DNA of 21,656 bases, from contig JBFRWD010000062.1 of NCBI GenBank assembly GCA_051439425.1, positions 1-21,656 of the forward strand, in the 5' to 3' direction. Position numbers and translations under genes: made by a program. The notes beneath the pieces are model-generated. The model did not search any database. It saw only the letters and a list, made by a program, of their open reading frames with translations, and was not told the DNA's origin. The stretch comes from Synechococcus sp. Its GTDB lineage: Bacteria > Cyanobacteriota > Cyanobacteriia > Thermostichales > PCC-7336. Below, in pieces: positions 5,979-16,399 of the stretch. Every line of letters begins with the position of its first letter. Position 1 is the stretch's first letter.

Positions 5979-6599
5979 ATGCGTGGCGAACCCTTTTTAT
6001 TTCAGGTATTCGACAATCCCATATGGTTTTTGCAATATGCGATCGTCATTGTGATTTCAATTTGTCTGCATGAGCTCGGCCACGGATTTGCGGCCATTTA
6101 TTTGGGGGACGATACTCCAATTCGCTCGGGGCATATGACTTGGAACCCAGTAGTTCATATGGGAGTCCCCTCGCTGATTTTTTTGATGGTGACAGGGATG
6201 GCATGGGGAGCGATGCCGGTAACACCATCGCGACTGCACTCGTCCTTTGGAGATGCGATCGTTTCAGCTGCCGGACCGTTTACGAATTTTGCACTAGCAA
6301 TTACCAGCACATTTGTTGTCAACCTATTACTACTACTTCCTAGAGGCGAGTTTGTTGTAGGGCTAGCAAACTTTTTCTTGCTGGCAGTCTATGTCAACAT
6401 CACCCTTGGACTGTTTAACCTCATTCCCGTTCCTCCTCTAGACGGGTTTCGTGTCTTTAAACGGTTCATCCCGAAGTTTGGATCGATTGAAGGGACGCCC
6501 TACGGTTTTATTGCACTCTACGTACTCTTTTTTAGTGGGTTTTCAGGGGTGTTGTGGAAAGCGTCCGATGCGATCCTTCAGTTTCTTGTCAACGCGTAA
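5979..6599 (+). CDS. Site-2 protease (peptidase M50) intramembrane zinc metalloprotease
   Basis: HELGH zinc motif, AAGPFTN and FNLIPVPPLDG. ATG 5979 (or 5952) is more plausible than TTG 5790. Confidence 0.92.
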   Translation: MRGEPFLFQVFDNPIWFLQYAIVIVISICLHELGHGFAAIYLGDDTPIRSGHMTWNPVVHMGVPSLIFLMVTGMAWGAMPVTPSRLHSSFGDAIVSAAGPFTNFALAITSTFVVNLLLLLPRGEFVVGLANFFLLAVYVNITLGLFNLIPVPPLDGFRVFKRFIPKFGSIEGTPYGFIALYVLFFSGFSGVLWKASDAILQFLVNA

Positions 6600-6966
6600 A
6601 TCCAGGCATTCGTGAATGGAGCATGACGGAATTAGAGTGAGATATCAACACCTCCGCAAAGTTTCGCGACGGTCTGTCATTGGCGGCTGTGACCATTACA
6701 TCTTCATTAAGCGTACGTGAGTCCTCGCTTCCTATCTGAAGCGCTTCTTCCTCTCAATTTGTCGATATCGTTTGTAGCCTTGAACGATCGCCGATTGCCA
6801 AATGATATGCCAATCGCCCCTTTGATCTCGGTACTTCTACCGCTAGGGCACGCCTTTCGATAGCTAACGAAAATCCAAGCAGGGCAAGCCAATTCCAGCT
6901 TTTGTCTTGCCACCCAAACGCTCCAACAGCCCCTGCTAGAATCCCAAAAACGATGGATTCAGCGAG

Positions 6967-7821
6967 ATGAAGCCGAAGCAAAAGCTTTTAATATGCACCG
7001 ATCTGGATCGCACCCTGATTCCCAATGGTGCTGCCGAAGAATCTCCCAACGCGCGGGAGCTATTTCAGCATTTCGTCAGCCGTCCCGAAGTTTCGCTCGC
7101 TTATGTCACTGGTCGAGACCTCGATGCCATCAATCAGGCGATCGCCGACTACAAACTGCCTGTCCCCGACTATGCGATCGCCGATGTAGGAGCCAGCATC
7201 TTCACCCATAGCAATGGGGAGTGGACACGTATCGAGGAGTGGGATCGCCAAAGTGCCAATTATTGCAAGAAAGACCATTGGAGCGATCTGGACGAACTGT
7301 TTGACGACCTAGACTGCTTGGAATTGCAAGAGCCTGCCAAGCAAGGGTTATACAAGCTCAGTTATTACGTTCCGGGCGAAGTGAATAGCACCACCCTGAT
7401 GGTGAAGCTGAAAACTCGGCTGAAATGGGAAGAAGTTCAGGCCAAAGTCATTTGGAGCACCGACGAACACCAAAAGCTAGGGTTAGTGGACATCCTGCCC
7501 GCCAATGCCGATAAATGTCTGGCACTGGAATTTCTCTTGGAGCGATTTGGGTTCAACCGCGATCGCACTCTGCTAGCTGGAGTCAGTGCCAACGACATCA
7601 CCGTAATGGCCAGCGATATCCCCGCCGTATTGGTGGCCAATGCTGGGGCCGAGATCAAGCGATTAGCCTACCGCCGCGCCCGCGAAAGCCACAATCTTCA
7701 GGCCCTATACATTGCTCGCGGGGAACGTTTGGGGATGAATGGGAACTACGGTGCAGGCATCTTGGAAGGAGTTGCCTATTTCTTTCCAGAAGCACTCTCC
7801 TGGATTACTCCTCAGACCTAG
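6967..7821 (+). CDS. HAD-IIB family sugar-phosphate phosphatase (sucrose-phosphate phosphatase-like)
   Basis: Motif I TDLDRTL, motif II YVTGR, DVG, LP..ADK, and a variant motif IV GVSAND. Adjacent to a PfkB kinase. Confidence 0.85.
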   Translation: MKPKQKLLICTDLDRTLIPNGAAEESPNARELFQHFVSRPEVSLAYVTGRDLDAINQAIADYKLPVPDYAIADVGASIFTHSNGEWTRIEEWDRQSANYCKKDHWSDLDELFDDLDCLELQEPAKQGLYKLSYYVPGEVNSTTLMVKLKTRLKWEEVQAKVIWSTDEHQKLGLVDILPANADKCLALEFLLERFGFNRDRTLLAGVSANDITVMASDIPAVLVANAGAEIKRLAYRRARESHNLQALYIARGERLGMNGNYGAGILEGVAYFFPEALSWITPQT

Positions 7822-9574: not shown

Positions 9575-10573
9575 ATGAGTCGCCTGCAATCCATCAAACC
9601 CATTAGTCCCATCAAATTACTAGCTCCCATCAAATTATTAGCTCCCATCAAGACGATCGGACTGGCCGCACTTGCGGGCACAGCATTGATTGTGGGCTGC
9701 GCAAGGCTATCCCAGAACTCACAGGGAGACGCAGATGTACTGTATGCGCAACCGCTTGCAGAAGAAGCATTGGTCAATCAGTCGCGATCGCTAGCCCCGA
9801 CGGACAATATTGCAGGTGTTGTTGCCGATGCCGAACTCACTCCCACCAGTTCGAATGTTGCTCCCAATCGTCCCCAACTGATTCGGACGGCTCAGATGAC
9901 AGTGGTCATAGATTCGCTGGACGAGACATTGGATCGAGTGGGTGAAATCTTGGGTCAGCACGATGGAGAAATCCTATCGCTGTATGAATCCACCCCCATT
10001 CGCGAGGGGGATCGCCACTCTGCCCACCTGCAACTGCGAGTCCCGCAGGCCCAATTAGATGCAGCGGTAGAATCCCTCAATGCGATCGGCAATGTTAGCT
10101 CCCAGAGCATTACAGCAGAAGATGTTTCCGCCCAAATCGTAGACTACGAAGCCCGATTGAGAAATTTACGTCGGGGAGAAGAAACCGTATTGGCGCTGTT
10201 TGAGCGCTCGGGCCGCTTAAGCGATGCTCTGGAAGTTTCTCGGGAGTTGAGCAATATTCGCTCTCAAGTCGAACAGACTGAAGCGCAGTTAAGCTACCTG
10301 CAAACTCGGGTGACGTACTCTCACATCACCGTGCAATTAGAGACGGCTCTCGCTGCCGTTCCCAACGAGCGATCGCTGTCTACTCAATTGAAAAATGCTT
10401 GGCAGCAATCCACCCACTCGTTAGGCACCTTGATGGTGAGCATTCTGGAAGGGGGAATTTGGGTGGTAGTGTACAGCCCCTTCTGGATTGCGATCGGGGT
10501 TGGGGCCACTGTAACGGTGGTTCAGTTGAAACGTTGGCGTCGTAGCGCGTCCCAAGAACCTGTGGAGAGCTAG
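9575..10573 (+). CDS. DUF4349 domain lipoprotein
   Basis: Lipobox LIVGC, LIRTAQM, LRVP, EDVSAQIVDYEARLRNL coiled coil, YSHITVQL and a C-terminal TM helix. AGGAG RBS upstream. Confidence 0.85.
   Translation: MSRLQSIKPISPIKLLAPIKLLAPIKTIGLAALAGTALIVGCARLSQNSQGDADVLYAQPLAEEALVNQSRSLAPTDNIAGVVADAELTPTSSNVAPNRPQLIRTAQMTVVIDSLDETLDRVGEILGQHDGEILSLYESTPIREGDRHSAHLQLRVPQAQLDAAVESLNAIGNVSSQSITAEDVSAQIVDYEARLRNLRRGEETVLALFERSGRLSDALEVSRELSNIRSQVEQTEAQLSYLQTRVTYSHITVQLETALAAVPNERSLSTQLKNAWQQSTHSLGTLMVSILEGGIWVVVYSPFWIAIGVGATVTVVQLKRWRRSASQEPVES
9590..9652 (+). repeat. In-frame 18-bp tandem repeat (PIKLLA) in the signal-peptide N-region
   Basis: tccatcaaa cccattagt cccatcaaa ttactagct cccatcaaa ttattagct cccatcaag. 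Confidence 0.85.
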
Positions 10574-12224: not shown

Positions 12225-12629
12225 CTACAAGGCTGCGCTGAGGGCATCCACCGGGCAGGTGGGAATGCATTGCTCGCACATGACGCATCGATTGCGCAAG
12301 TATTCTAACTGAAAGCTACTAGGCTCCAATCGCAATGCCTCTGTGGGGCAGACTCCCGTACACAGACCGCAATCTACGCACAAGTCGCGATCGATTTGAA
12401 TCTCGCTGCTGCTCTCCGAAATGCTAATTCCTTGCGTTCGGGCCCATTCTAAGCTCGCCTCCACTTGGTCGATGTCACCCGACAGTTCGACAACAAGAGT
12501 CCCCACCTCATCAGGTGCCACTTGAGCCCGCACGATATTCGCAGCAACATCAAAATCACGAGCCAGACGATAAGTTACGGGCAAATTCACCACGTGACGA
12601 GGAAAAATCATGCTGACGCGCTTGCGCAT
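12225..12629 (-). CDS. NIL domain-containing 4Fe-4S ferredoxin-like protein
   Basis: N-terminal NIL-like region (PVTYRLARDFDVAANIVRA) plus two CxxCxxCxxxCP motifs. Confidence 0.9.
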   Translation of the reverse strand: MRKRVSMIFPRHVVNLPVTYRLARDFDVAANIVRAQVAPDEVGTLVVELSGDIDQVEASLEWARTQGISISESSSEIQIDRDLCVDCGLCTGVCPTEALRLEPSSFQLEYLRNRCVMCEQCIPTCPVDALSAAL

Positions 12630-12817: not shown

Positions 12818-13132
12818 TCACCGATTCTCCAACTCCCTCACCTGGCGCTCTAGGCGATCCAGCCGCCCACGCAACTCATCCATCTCCGCTTGTCTAGGTA
12901 CCCCCCAGTCCTGCATCGTATTGCGAATCTGACGCTGCAGAACGGCTTCGAAGTTTTCCTGCTCGGTGCGAAATTGGGTCATGACCTTGTCGACCATTTG
13001 ACGAGCAGATTCAGGTTCGAGGCTGCCATTTTGCACTAAATCATCCACAGCCTTATTGAGTTGTTCCATCATCACACTTGTGGTGCCTACCCCCACCATC
13101 AAGAGTTGTCGAATTAAGCTGTTGGTATCCAT
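12818..13132 (-). CDS. Phasin-like (PhaF/PhaI-type) coiled-coil protein
   Basis: LLMVGVG, VDDLVQNGSL and C-terminal EMDELRGRLDRLERQV pattern typical of cyanobacterial phasin-family proteins. Confidence 0.75.
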   Translation of the reverse strand: MDTNSLIRQLLMVGVGTTSVMMEQLNKAVDDLVQNGSLEPESARQMVDKVMTQFRTEQENFEAVLQRQIRNTMQDWGVPRQAEMDELRGRLDRLERQVRELENR

Positions 13133-14182: not shown

Positions 14183-14664
14183 TTCCCTCCCTACAGTTTC
14201 TTTCGCATCCCAGTTCATGTGTGTGCAAGCAGACACAGGTTCGTCAGTGGATTGTTTATGAGAGGACGTGACAGCGAGGCTACTCTGCTCTCATTTTCAC
14301 GAACACTGCTTTTCGACCGGGATCATTCTGCGAGTCGCAGCATTCCCAGCCCTCGCAACACCTGATTATTCGACACGTTCAAGCAGGACTAGCGCTAGGG
14401 GTTCTCAACCTTTACTATGTACCCGTAATCGTTAAGCTCTCTCAGAAAATCGTCATTGCGGCACCCTGTAGGGCTTACTATGTGAACATCTAGAAAAGAT
14501 ACGGCCGGATACGCAATATTCCTTAACAAAATCGACTGATTTTCTCAGGGATTTTGGCAGGGGCTGAATGAATCCGTGCTGGGTTTTCAACATAACAACC
14601 TGTCATTTATCTGGACTGCATAAGTCACTTCTATTCAAACTGTTGTTGCTGGGAGTAGCACCGA

Positions 14665-15960
14665 ATGAACTTTGGATCGACGTCGCGATTGGGACTTAGC
14701 CTCTACGAAACGTCCGCCCCCATCGAGCAGTGGCCGGGCCAATCAAGCGGAGATACAGCAGTCATTATTCGGGCGGTTTACAAACAGGTTCTGGGCAACG
14801 CCCACATTATGGATAGCGAACGCTTGGTTAGCGCAGAATCCAAATTTACGGACGGAGAGCTGAGTGTGCGAGAATTCGTCCGCGCTGTCGGTAAGTCTTC
14901 TCTGTATTCCTCTCTGTTCGGCGATCGCCCCCGTTTCCGCCAGATTGAATTGGGATACAAGCATTTTCTAGGGCGCGCTCCCAATAGCTACAGTGAAATG
15001 CAGGCCGGTACTGCTGTTCTCGATACTGGCAGCTTTGACAACCTGATCGACTTTTTTGTAGATAGCAACGAGTACGAGTCCACGTTTGGTAGCGATACTG
15101 TTCCTTACATCCGCGGCTACAAGACTGAAGCACTCAGCACTAATGCCGGTTTCTCGTACATGTTCGATTTGCTGCGCGGTCCCGCCACCAGCGATGCGGC
15201 GGTAGCCTCTGCACTAAATGGTGCCATTTCGAAAGAAAAGCCTCGGTCGATTTCACTCAGTTACCGCAAACCGACGATTTTGCCCTACGGCTCTCAACCT
15301 AGCTATCAGGTTCCAACAACATCTGCCGCAATTCCTACTGCTTCTGTGGATATACCCAGTCAACCTGCAACCGCCGCCCCCGAAAAGGCACCGCTGTTCT
15401 CGGGAGAATCCACCAGCAAGCTGGGTGTCTTCGGCCGCATTGTTAGCTTTGTAGAGCAACTAACTGGAGGTGATGGCAGTAGTGATGCGGCTGTAACAGC
15501 CTCGCAGTCGAAAGAAGAATTCTTCCTGGATCCGGACGACGCTCGCTCTTTGGGAGACGTCGAATACATGCGGGCTCCTAGAACGATTAAACGGACGTTC
15601 CCGAATGCTGCAAATCCCGAAAAGCCCCTGGAATTTGAAGCAGTTGTGACGGCGACCGAAAAAGTTATTTCGCCCGAAAAAGACAAGCCCACTGGCTTGC
15701 CGACAGCTGCACCTACCAAACCAAAGGACGTCAAAATTCCTGTGGTTACCGGAACTCCGGCGGCAACATCAACTGCCCCTGCATCCGTATCAGCAGTCTC
15801 TGCTTCGTTGATGGAATTTGGGACGACCGCCTCCAGAGCCGGTAAATCTGGGCCTTATGTGTCGATGTCGATGTCCCCCGAGGTATCTACTCGCCGCAAG
15901 AAAGATAACAGCCTTGACCTATTCCGTAAAATGGCCACTGACTTGCGCCGCAGCGAATAG
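14665..15960 (+). CDS. Phycobilisome rod-linker domain protein (CpeC/CpcC-like) fused to an ApcI/ApcG-like C-terminal module
   Basis: aa 1-175: SRLG, IIRAVYKQVLGN, ERLVSAES, SVREFVRAVGKS, KHFLGRAP, DSNEY..FG.DTVPY (PBS linker domain). C-terminal part: FFLDPDDARSLGDVEYMR..IKRTFP and RRKKDNSLDLFRKMA. Confidence 0.88.
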   Translation: MNFGSTSRLGLSLYETSAPIEQWPGQSSGDTAVIIRAVYKQVLGNAHIMDSERLVSAESKFTDGELSVREFVRAVGKSSLYSSLFGDRPRFRQIELGYKHFLGRAPNSYSEMQAGTAVLDTGSFDNLIDFFVDSNEYESTFGSDTVPYIRGYKTEALSTNAGFSYMFDLLRGPATSDAAVASALNGAISKEKPRSISLSYRKPTILPYGSQPSYQVPTTSAAIPTASVDIPSQPATAAPEKAPLFSGESTSKLGVFGRIVSFVEQLTGGDGSSDAAVTASQSKEEFFLDPDDARSLGDVEYMRAPRTIKRTFPNAANPEKPLEFEAVVTATEKVISPEKDKPTGLPTAAPTKPKDVKIPVVTGTPAATSTAPASVSAVSASLMEFGTTASRAGKSGPYVSMSMSPEVSTRRKKDNSLDLFRKMATDLRRSE

Positions 15961-15994: not shown

Positions 15995-16023
15995 GGCTTC
16001 ACCACAATGGTGAAGCCTTTTTT
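15995..16023 (+). terminator. Rho-independent terminator of the linker gene
   Basis: Perfect 10-bp stem ggcttcacca-caa-tggtgaagcc followed by T6. Confidence 0.85.
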
Positions 16024-16399
16024 CTTTCGTGCTCCGAAAGTTCAACGTACATAGCAATCCGCTGTAAGGTCTGGAGTGTGAGGGAAGCTCAAACCCCAGT
16101 TCTTCCGAGAAAATGGCTAGAGGTTCCTCCATCGCTGATTGCAGAAAGCTATAGAGCCTGAAATGTTGAAGAACCGCTTGCAAACTTCTTTCTTCAATCG
16201 CAGTAGACAAATCCCAGATAGAAGTGTTCAGCACATTCGGTCGAAGTTACTGTTTGTATCGCCCAGATTTTCTGCTTTTTTTACGATCGCCAAGATACGA
16301 ATATTGCATCGATGACGCCTTCCTCGTTGCCCCGAATTCACAGCTTGAAACGGCAGACAAGATAAACCAAACAAACAATACCCAACCTTAGAGCGACGG

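Follow-up and report, generated by a model that had tools for sequence, protein, structure and literature searches.

Architecture of the linker gene product

Phycobilisome linkers are notoriously modular. The window considered here, i.e. the whole stretch of DNA that was analysed (21,656 nucleotides (nt) of contig C62 from a Synechococcus sp. genome), contains an open reading frame (ORF) at 14665..15960 (+), starting with ATG and coding for 431 amino acids (aa) plus a stop, which joins a rod-type phycobilisome linker domain to a C-terminal part resembling the small protein ApcI over its whole length. From the N-terminus, the product consists of a PF00427 phycobilisome linker domain (REP domain; aa 27–150, 14743..15114 (+), of rod or CpeC-like type, recognized with Pfam), followed by a first spacer rich in Pro, Ala, Thr and Ser and predicted to be disordered (aa 151–252, 15115..15420 (+), predicted local distance difference test (pLDDT) below 50). 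Next comes a block similar to the N-terminal region of ApcI (LGVFGRIVSFVEQLTGGD) with a predicted helix at 256–267 (15421..15474 (+), placed by the alignments with the ApcI protein Sll1911 and with an ApcI profile), and then the putative middle domain of ApcI (KEEFFLDPDDARSLGDVEYMR..TFPN..LEFEAVV), for which homology and an AlphaFold2 (AF2) model indicate two short helices and three β-strands (15511..15684 (+)). A second, low-complexity spacer (aa 341–380, 15685..15804 (+), pLDDT below 50) leads to a putative core-binding region at the C-terminus (GKSGPYVSMSMSPEVSTRRKKDNSLDLFRKMATDLRRSE; 15805..15957 (+), identified with a hidden Markov model (HMM) of the ApcI C-terminus), which holds the FxxM motif F420–M423 (nt 15922–15933). 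The initial annotation of the window had placed the ORF and its blocks exactly where they are found, with K252-LGVFGRIVSFVEQL, K283-EEFFLDPDD...TFP and the terminal RRKKDNSLDLFRKMATDLRR containing F420..M423.

The PF00427 match covers profile positions 2–126 of 126 (134 bits against a cut-off of 28.7, E 3.9e-39). No other Pfam family is matched in the 431-aa protein at E ≤ 0.01, and the CpcD domain (PF01383) is absent at this threshold, as had been noted beforehand; a scan of the genome gave seven PF01383 matches, none of them on contig C62. The NCBIfam models for CpcG1-4 reach 68–80 bits in the REP domain only, below their cut-offs of 420–440. The best single-domain matches among PDB structures are CpcC rod linkers (143–151 bits); CpcN, Glr2806 and Glr1262 have higher total scores in the structure database than CpcC because several domains are summed. 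The nearest single-domain relatives, 282 aa long and 54–61% identical, carry the JGI label "phycoerythrin-associated linker protein", which is an automatic source label and not the result of a test. The REP sequence also resembles that of CpeC. Within the genome, BLAST identities of the REP domain are 59% and 53% to the two halves of a cpeC-like gene split over the ends of contigs C3 and C151, its closest paralog there, 39–45% to three further rod linkers on C151, 36–37% to the repeats of the genome's own ApcE and 31% to the REP domains of the CpcG and CpcL-like proteins. The N-terminal 185 residues of the window protein are 59–63% identical to P0240 (284 aa, with a CpcD domain), which represents the split gene in intact form. 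A maximum-likelihood tree of 29 REP segments places the REP domains of the fusion proteins in a clade of their own (support 100/99), sister to CpeC-like domains. By these sequence criteria the domain is of rod type and closest to phycoerythrin-associated linkers, as the initial annotation had proposed on the grounds of its N-terminus. The two pieces of the split cpeC-like gene lie at C3:35822-36079 (+) and C151:5893-6363 (−) of the window's genome (G000), and they are probably one gene which joins C3 to C151.

For the C-terminal part, BLASTP aligns aa 253–429 with residues 5–128 of Sll1911 (P0159, 128 aa; E 4e-18), and the alignment takes in the N-terminal block, the FFLxPDDAxSLG..YMR..TFP block and the RR..DNSLD.FR.MA tail. 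The N-terminal block LGVFGRIVSFVEQ aligns with residues 5–17 of Sll1911 and with the ApcI profile from position 3 onward, the middle domain keeps the nearly invariant L, G, M, R and F residues of the family, and the C-terminal region keeps all family-invariant columns, with the motif D..F420RKM423A. The profile itself, built from 153 small relatives, matches the window ORF with E 2.3e-30, and the C-terminal HMM with E 4.4e-8. An exhaustive phmmer search with aa 246–431 against 1.84 billion representative sequences returned 300 hits at E ≤ 1e-3, most of them matching the middle block and the C-terminus as separate stretches; among the best 150 of these 300 hits, 147 are proteins of 68–199 aa, and P0019 (E 9.3e-12) represents the cluster which contains Sll1911. 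A word-indexed search for shorter relatives, a tool of limited sensitivity, found only the fragment P0010. Judged by sequence, aa 253–429 is thus a full ApcI homolog with the order of the blocks kept, and the previously proposed correspondence of three blocks with Sll1911 stands. The relation to ApcG (Sll1873) suggested at the same time holds for the C-terminal helix and for nothing else in the protein: the ApcI profile reaches ApcG (7sc7_BG, E 0.14) and the red-algal LPP2 (8wql_EF, E 0.042) in the helix only, and a phmmer search of the tail against PDB sequences gave no ApcG chain at E ≤ 10. Matches of aa 201–431 to the mitoribosomal protein mS35 in phmmer searches of PDB sequences (E 1e-4 to 1.6) were rejected as compositional, arising through the Pro/Ala/Thr-rich spacer.

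According to the available parts of the ApcI preprint, the protein has three conserved regions, namely an N-terminal one, a middle one with predicted β-strands and a C-terminal FxxM helix; residues 1–73 associate with the thylakoid or photosystem II (PSII), and the C-terminal domain binds the phycobilisome core and is paralogous to the core-binding domain of ApcG (10.1101/2024.09.09.612062). The same parts describe Synechocystis ApcI as expressed in red light, competing with ApcG for one site and affecting tolerance to high light (10.1101/2024.09.09.612062). LcpA (A0913) of Synechococcus 7002 is described, in the portion of the source available, with the same three regions and an FxxMA helix, a motif type that is also reported there for the C-terminus of CpcG (PMC11789067), and the accessible text on ApcG has its helix binding a groove on ApcA "like CpcG1" (10.1101/2021.11.15.468712). 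The AF2 model of the window protein (from a 24-row alignment) agrees with the three-region description of ApcI: the REP domain is predicted with pLDDT of about 87–95, both spacers are disordered, and the tail shows, besides the helix at 256–267, strands at 306–312, 322–328 and 333–337 (pLDDT 55–64) and C-terminal helices at 405–413 and 418–430 (pLDDT 59–82).

Relatives and integrity of the fusion

The tail is also present, at E 1e-56 to 1e-99, in eight other proteins of 439–674 aa (nine hits at E ≤ 1e-3 when the window's own is counted), and a distant 663-aa form, P0013, also has the fusion architecture. All fusion relatives come from metagenome-assembled genomes or metagenome assemblies, in several records, and the NCBI pipeline gives them the generic name "phycobilisome rod-core linker polypeptide". 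Seven of the eight have two PF00427-type domains ahead of the tail; the remaining one, P0007 (439 aa), has a single domain like the window protein.

The fusion is real and under purifying selection. In Nei-Gojobori counts against the orthologs in genomes G003 and G001, each of the five segments of the gene has a pN well under its pS, with ω of 0.03–0.10 (about 0.06 overall), values that are rough because synonymous sites are near saturation. The REP domain is at about 0.05, the N-terminal and middle regions of the ApcI module at 0.067, and the C-terminal region has the lowest value, 0.027. Contigs of sequencing run X1 tile the whole ORF with 0 differences, and a single 867-nt piece spans the REP domain into the ApcI module; X1 may be the source sample and hence not independent, and all read evidence is at the level of contigs. 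Two runs of another study yielded short pieces covering 15211–15375, in the spacer that distinguishes the one-REP form, with 3 differences each. No indel within the ORF was reported in the contigs of the three runs, and the frameshift or stop which might have split the ORF into two genes, named in the initial annotation as the outcome that would speak against a fusion, is not seen in the intact ORF of the X1 contigs.

The number of REP domains varies between close relatives. Over 439 aligned residues, P0007 and P0008 have 98.6% identity, and one clean indel of 224 residues sets them apart. Compared with P0002, the window protein is missing about 236 residues, the gap lying after residue 219, and the remnants of the spacer differ from those in the P0007/P0008 case; the first spacer of the window protein stands at the position which the second REP domain occupies in the 661–674-aa relatives. 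In the tree of REP domains, the single REP of the window protein is nested among REP1 domains from two-REP proteins, with that of P0002 as its sister (88/79). The REP of P0007 pairs with REP1 of P0008 (100/97), and the second REPs form a separate group. On the simplest reading, this implies a two-REP ancestor and two independent in-frame losses. Collapse of a tandem repeat during assembly was rejected as the cause of the one-REP form, since REP1 and REP2 share only about 65% protein identity and are too divergent to be collapsed.

Distribution

The fusion is a rare architecture. Its tail was searched for in 61 genomes, the window's own and 60 relatives, which as kin are not independent. It is matched in 51 of the 61, and frames of fusion length are found in three only, G000 (433 aa), G003 (676 aa) and G001 (441 aa); the remaining matches lie in frames of 80–216 aa. 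The three carriers of the fusion, which the genome survey proposed earlier thus confines to one genus, make up three of the four genomes of the window's genus. The fourth, G002, has no fusion and instead a stand-alone ApcI of 152 aa beside cpcL-like and cpcG genes, to which apcI is convergent (L020). A scan of species-representative genomes, with patterns which could miss the lineage of P0013, found only two fusion loci, which correspond to those of G001 and G003. In a scan of metagenome contigs, none of 33 ApcI loci was a fusion; their stop-to-stop frames measure 99–206 aa (median 139), and all 33 end in F..M.

No fusion of PF00427 to ApcI is mentioned in the available parts of the literature on ApcI, LcpA and ApcG (10.1101/2024.09.09.612062, PMC11789067, 10.1101/2021.11.15.468712), nor in the accessible text of a 2026 review (PMC13436157) or in full-text literature searches; the list of 244 homologs in the preprint might hold long forms. 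Both modules are known already, and it is the joining of a rod-linker domain to a whole ApcI that is apparently undescribed.

Antenna genes of the genome and a second ApcI-like gene

The genome is an assembly of 182 contigs and 96% complete. Its cpc, cpe and apc genes are on contigs other than that of the window: cpcBA, cpcEF and pebAB on C3, apcABC on C179, and cpeBA on C54 together with a CpcL-like protein with a hydrophobic tail and CpcG. The latter two are in tandem near cpeBA, at C54:5661-6473 (+) and 6532-7383 (+) (L012), and the genome's own CpcG carries EYLAMAK near its end, i.e. a Y..MA motif. ApcE is encoded by a frame of 733 aa from stop to stop at C60:7533-9731 (−), with only two PF00427 domains, which by the usual rule would therefore correspond to a two-cylinder core. 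Using the C-terminal HMM with its filters off and two tail motifs, the window ORF was the only ApcI-type FxxM tail found in the genome; the same model and motifs brought up no convincing ApcG-like tail, no ApcG query being among them. Divergent phycobiliprotein-like ORFs are present as well, one at L011:13656-14252 (+) (199 aa) with weak matches to the ApcA and ApcB models (55–62 bits), and two with weak PF00502 matches at C142:37105-37521 and 39010-39408 (−).

A second ApcI-like gene at C9:9151-9420 (−) (L014:2149-2421 (−)) codes for 87 aa comprising the N-terminal and middle regions and ends before the FxxM helix. Such helix-less paralogs, 72–90 aa long overall, are also found at L032:1493-1765 (+) in G003 and at L031:1343-1561 (+) in G001, so that the gene is intact, conserved and syntenic in all three carriers of the fusion, with genes for an EamA-type transporter and for a 164-aa protein as its neighbours. 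No copy was seen in G002, where ApcI is of the normal stand-alone kind. With three related genomes, the co-occurrence of the fusion and the helix-less paralog is a pattern rather than a statistic.

At its own locus, the fusion gene is flanked by ureE upstream and by a GT4 glycosyltransferase gene downstream (Pfam). An intergenic region of 482 nt (14183..14664 (+)) separates it from ureE, and GGGAG lies about 11 nt ahead of the ATG. A promoter scan found no consensus sigma-70 site on the + strand of 14183–14664, its sole hit being inside the end of the ORF, and Rfam returned no family anywhere in the window. The earlier description of a lone gene with a long upstream region, distant from cpe and cpc, is accurate. 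The terminator attributed to it has a physical counterpart in a hairpin of 10 pairs, 6 of them GC, at 15995–16017 (35 nt past the stop), followed by a run of T (15995..16027 (+) in all). However, 2 terminator-like hairpins were found in the region where 2.5 are expected from shuffled sequences, and its position is only suggestive because the count is no higher than in the shuffles.

Proposed function and alternative explanations

We consider it fairly probable that the protein is a phycobilisome linker made of two fused known modules, which tethers one or more pigment discs to the junction of the core with PSII. The CpeC-like REP domain, having lost the CpcD tail, would be lodged in the cavity at the centre of a hexamer of phycoerythrin (or possibly of phycocyanin), so that the window protein would hold one hexamer and its two-REP relatives two. 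The disordered spacers, of about 100 and 40–70 residues, would link the disc to the docking site of ApcI and ApcG at the core/PSII junction, and docking would thus use this site and not those of CpcG. The working plan of a rod-core linker, according to the data on CpcG, ApcG and LcpA, has a linker domain first, then an extension and finally a helix that binds allophycocyanin; the fusion protein would therefore work in the manner of CpcG with different parts, plus an additional segment facing the photosystem. What the analysis establishes is the architecture of the protein, its homologies, conservation and purifying selection, its distribution and the variation in REP number, whereas the pigment disc bound, the docking on allophycocyanin, the contact with PSII and the physiological role are all points which we infer. 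The disc-holding tether to the core or photosystem put forward in the initial annotation fits the anatomy of the protein and is, in the same way, a reading of that anatomy.

Docking was also examined by complex prediction, a check which had been suggested for ApcA/ApcB, using the genome's own ApcA and ApcB with aa 380–431 and three controls. The score was 0.54, compared to 0.03 for the best of the three controls. Of 157 solved complexes, 116 reach the mark applied in this method, as do 2 of 215 mismatched pairs, and passing scores of 0.60 or lower comprise only 18 of the 157 solved complexes plus both passing mismatches. The runs agree in at least 47% of contacts, and the pLDDT of the partner is at least 45. 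The prediction thus lends weak support to the docking of the C-terminal tail on ApcA/ApcB, and the pass may reflect likeness only, because like complexes (ApcG on allophycocyanin) have been solved.

Several points weigh against this proposal. The complex prediction is weak and the fold of the partner in it uncertain. A hexamer is too large for the gap between core and membrane, so the model needs the long disordered spacers to bring the disc beside the core, which is speculation. The assignment to a pigment rests on automatic labels and nearness in sequence, and LcpA and ApcI are probably one family, as judged from matching descriptions and not from sequences. The fusion is confined to a few uncultured relatives and is dispensable for the group, as G002 does without it. 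Finally, the genome keeps a normal CpcG and a CpcL-like protein, so the usual routes of rod attachment exist; the earlier idea that the protein bypasses CpcG and CpcL finds no support, since with both genes retained the fusion protein is an addition and not a replacement. One may tentatively imagine, although we regard it as rather doubtful, a third route of attachment, in which phycoerythrin discs would be suspended at the core/PSII junction, at the ApcI/ApcG site on the membrane-facing side of a small core with apparently two cylinders. How many discs are carried would depend on gain and loss of the second REP, which seems easily gained or lost because one- and two-REP alleles occur in near-identical strains. 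The helix-less paralog would compete on the photosystem side, and the two proteins would act as a switchable pair, determining whether the core serves PSII by itself or together with extra discs.

As an alternative, the REP domain could nucleate a short phycoerythrin or phycocyanin rod which the N-terminal and middle regions of the ApcI module fix to CP47 or to the membrane, giving a core-independent antenna of PSII, the counterpart of the CpcL rods on photosystem I (PSI), with the FxxM helix secondary or contacting a neighbouring phycobilisome. The N-terminal and middle regions match the helix in conservation (ω 0.067 vs 0.027), these regions of the stand-alone proteins bind PSII or the thylakoid according to the available parts of the reports (10.1101/2024.09.09.612062, PMC11789067), core attachment in the genome is already served by CpcG, and the conserved helix-less paralog of the same three genomes implies that both regions can persist where the helix is missing. 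The C-terminal helix region is however the most conserved segment, with all family-invariant residues kept, which argues that docking on allophycocyanin is kept; there is also no sign of direct energy transfer from phycoerythrin to PSII, and we hold a core-independent rod to be unlikely. A role as regulator or assembly factor, which would occupy the ApcI/ApcG site or sequester free hexamers under certain light and thereby uncouple or remodel the antenna, would accord with what the accessible text says on Synechocystis ApcI, i.e. its expression in red light, its competition with ApcG and its effect on high-light tolerance (10.1101/2024.09.09.612062), with a gene standing alone, far from the pigment operons and behind a long upstream region, and with a REP number that differs between near-identical alleles (P0007 and P0008, 98.6% and a 224-aa indel). 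Since the strong purifying selection on the REP domain (ω 0.05) fits a stoichiometric structural role at least equally well, such a regulator appears quite improbable to us.

Two further explanations concern the REP domain and the gene itself. ApcE and ApcH have PF00427 domains that match the query as well, and the two REP domains of the genome's ApcE point to a small core, so the REP domain might bind allophycocyanin in the way of the ApcE repeats or ApcH and supply the core with a further disc or cylinder, which the FxxM helix would hold. Against this, the best per-domain structure matches are rod linkers (CpcC at 151 bits, with the ApcE repeats lower), identity is 36–37% to the genome's own ApcE repeats as opposed to 40–59% to its own rod linkers, and the tree places the fusion REPs sister to CpeC-like domains, all of which makes binding of allophycocyanin by the REP very improbable. 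That the gene is an assembly chimera, a collapsed repeat or a decaying pseudogene could be thought of in an assembly of 182 contigs in which another linker gene is split across contig ends, the more so as the closest relatives have two REP domains against one here. But the same architecture is present in independent assemblies and in the genomes of two other species, REP1 and REP2, about 65% identical, have diverged too far to collapse, ω lies at 0.03–0.10 with no indel in the ORF in three runs, and the short pieces from the second study match the spacer specific to the one-REP form; an artefact or a pseudogene has, in our view, hardly any probability left.

Comparison with known linkers

With respect to ApcI, aa 253–429 match the entire 128-aa protein Sll1911, including its C-terminal RR..D.S.D.FR.MA helix. 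ApcI and LcpA are stand-alone proteins of about 100–200 aa, whereas the module is here the tail of a 431-aa protein behind PF00427, and compared to them it has an extra conserved stretch, SLMEFGTTASRAGKSGPYVSMSMS, before the helix, which is partly shared with its closest stand-alone relatives, P0011 and P0012. ApcG (Sll1873) and LPP2 share the C-terminal allophycocyanin-binding helix and have no similarity outside it. The REP domain is like that of CpeC-type linkers at the N-terminus, and their C-terminal CpcD domain (PF01383) is lacking. The plan shared with CpcG is that of a PF00427 domain, an extension and a short allophycocyanin-binding helix of FxxMA type, according to the parts of the sources available (PMC11789067, 10.1101/2021.11.15.468712); the tail of the window protein is however a whole ApcI module and not the C-terminal domain of CpcG, and identity in the REP domain is only 31%. 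A linker domain combined with a tail directed to a photosystem or membrane, apart from the standard hemidiscoidal scheme, is shared with CpcL, but CpcL ends in a hydrophobic transmembrane helix and the window protein in a charged amphipathic one (...RRKKDNSLDLFRKMATDLRRSE).

Tandem REPs like those of the 661–674-aa relatives are known from multi-REP linkers (Glr2806, Glr1262, CpcN, CpcJ and two-REP proteins with PF01383), none of which has an ApcI tail. Among other architectures encountered, P0172, P0176, P0192, P0193 and P0198 (548–584 aa) are two-REP linkers without CpcD whose tails consist of coiled-coil-like repeats ending in ...EARLNKWR; some are from named Leptolyngbya or Leptothoe records, and the tail differs from the ApcI module. 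In P0170 (754 aa), one CpcD domain comes after three CpeC-like REP domains that are nearly identical.

ApcG, ApcI and LcpA were recognized as connectors between the core and PSII only in 2021–2025, and their arrangement is still being worked out. The present protein can be seen as a "Rosetta stone" fusion, which would place a pigment disc and a core/PSII connector on one polypeptide in at least one lineage, and it predicts an antenna geometry absent from all solved phycobilisomes. It may also illustrate how rod-core linkers originate, a linker domain being joined to an allophycocyanin-binding helix by the logic proposed for CpcG. Its reach is limited, as only a few uncultured marine relatives carry the fusion, and it offers a ready-made test object in which the REP domain and the helix can be separated for in vitro assays.

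Other features of the window

A short dispersed repeat with a core of about 26–46 nt lies in the intergenic region after the terminator-like hairpin (16051–16096). It has at least 60 BLAST matches across the contigs of the genome, and its contig depth is very high in all four runs examined. The neighbourhood of the linker gene further includes unrelated genes at 12225–12629 (−), 12818–13132 (−) and 9575–10573 (+). They encode a protein that joins a NIL domain to a 2x[4Fe-4S] ferredoxin, a small phasin-like product and a protein with DUF4349.

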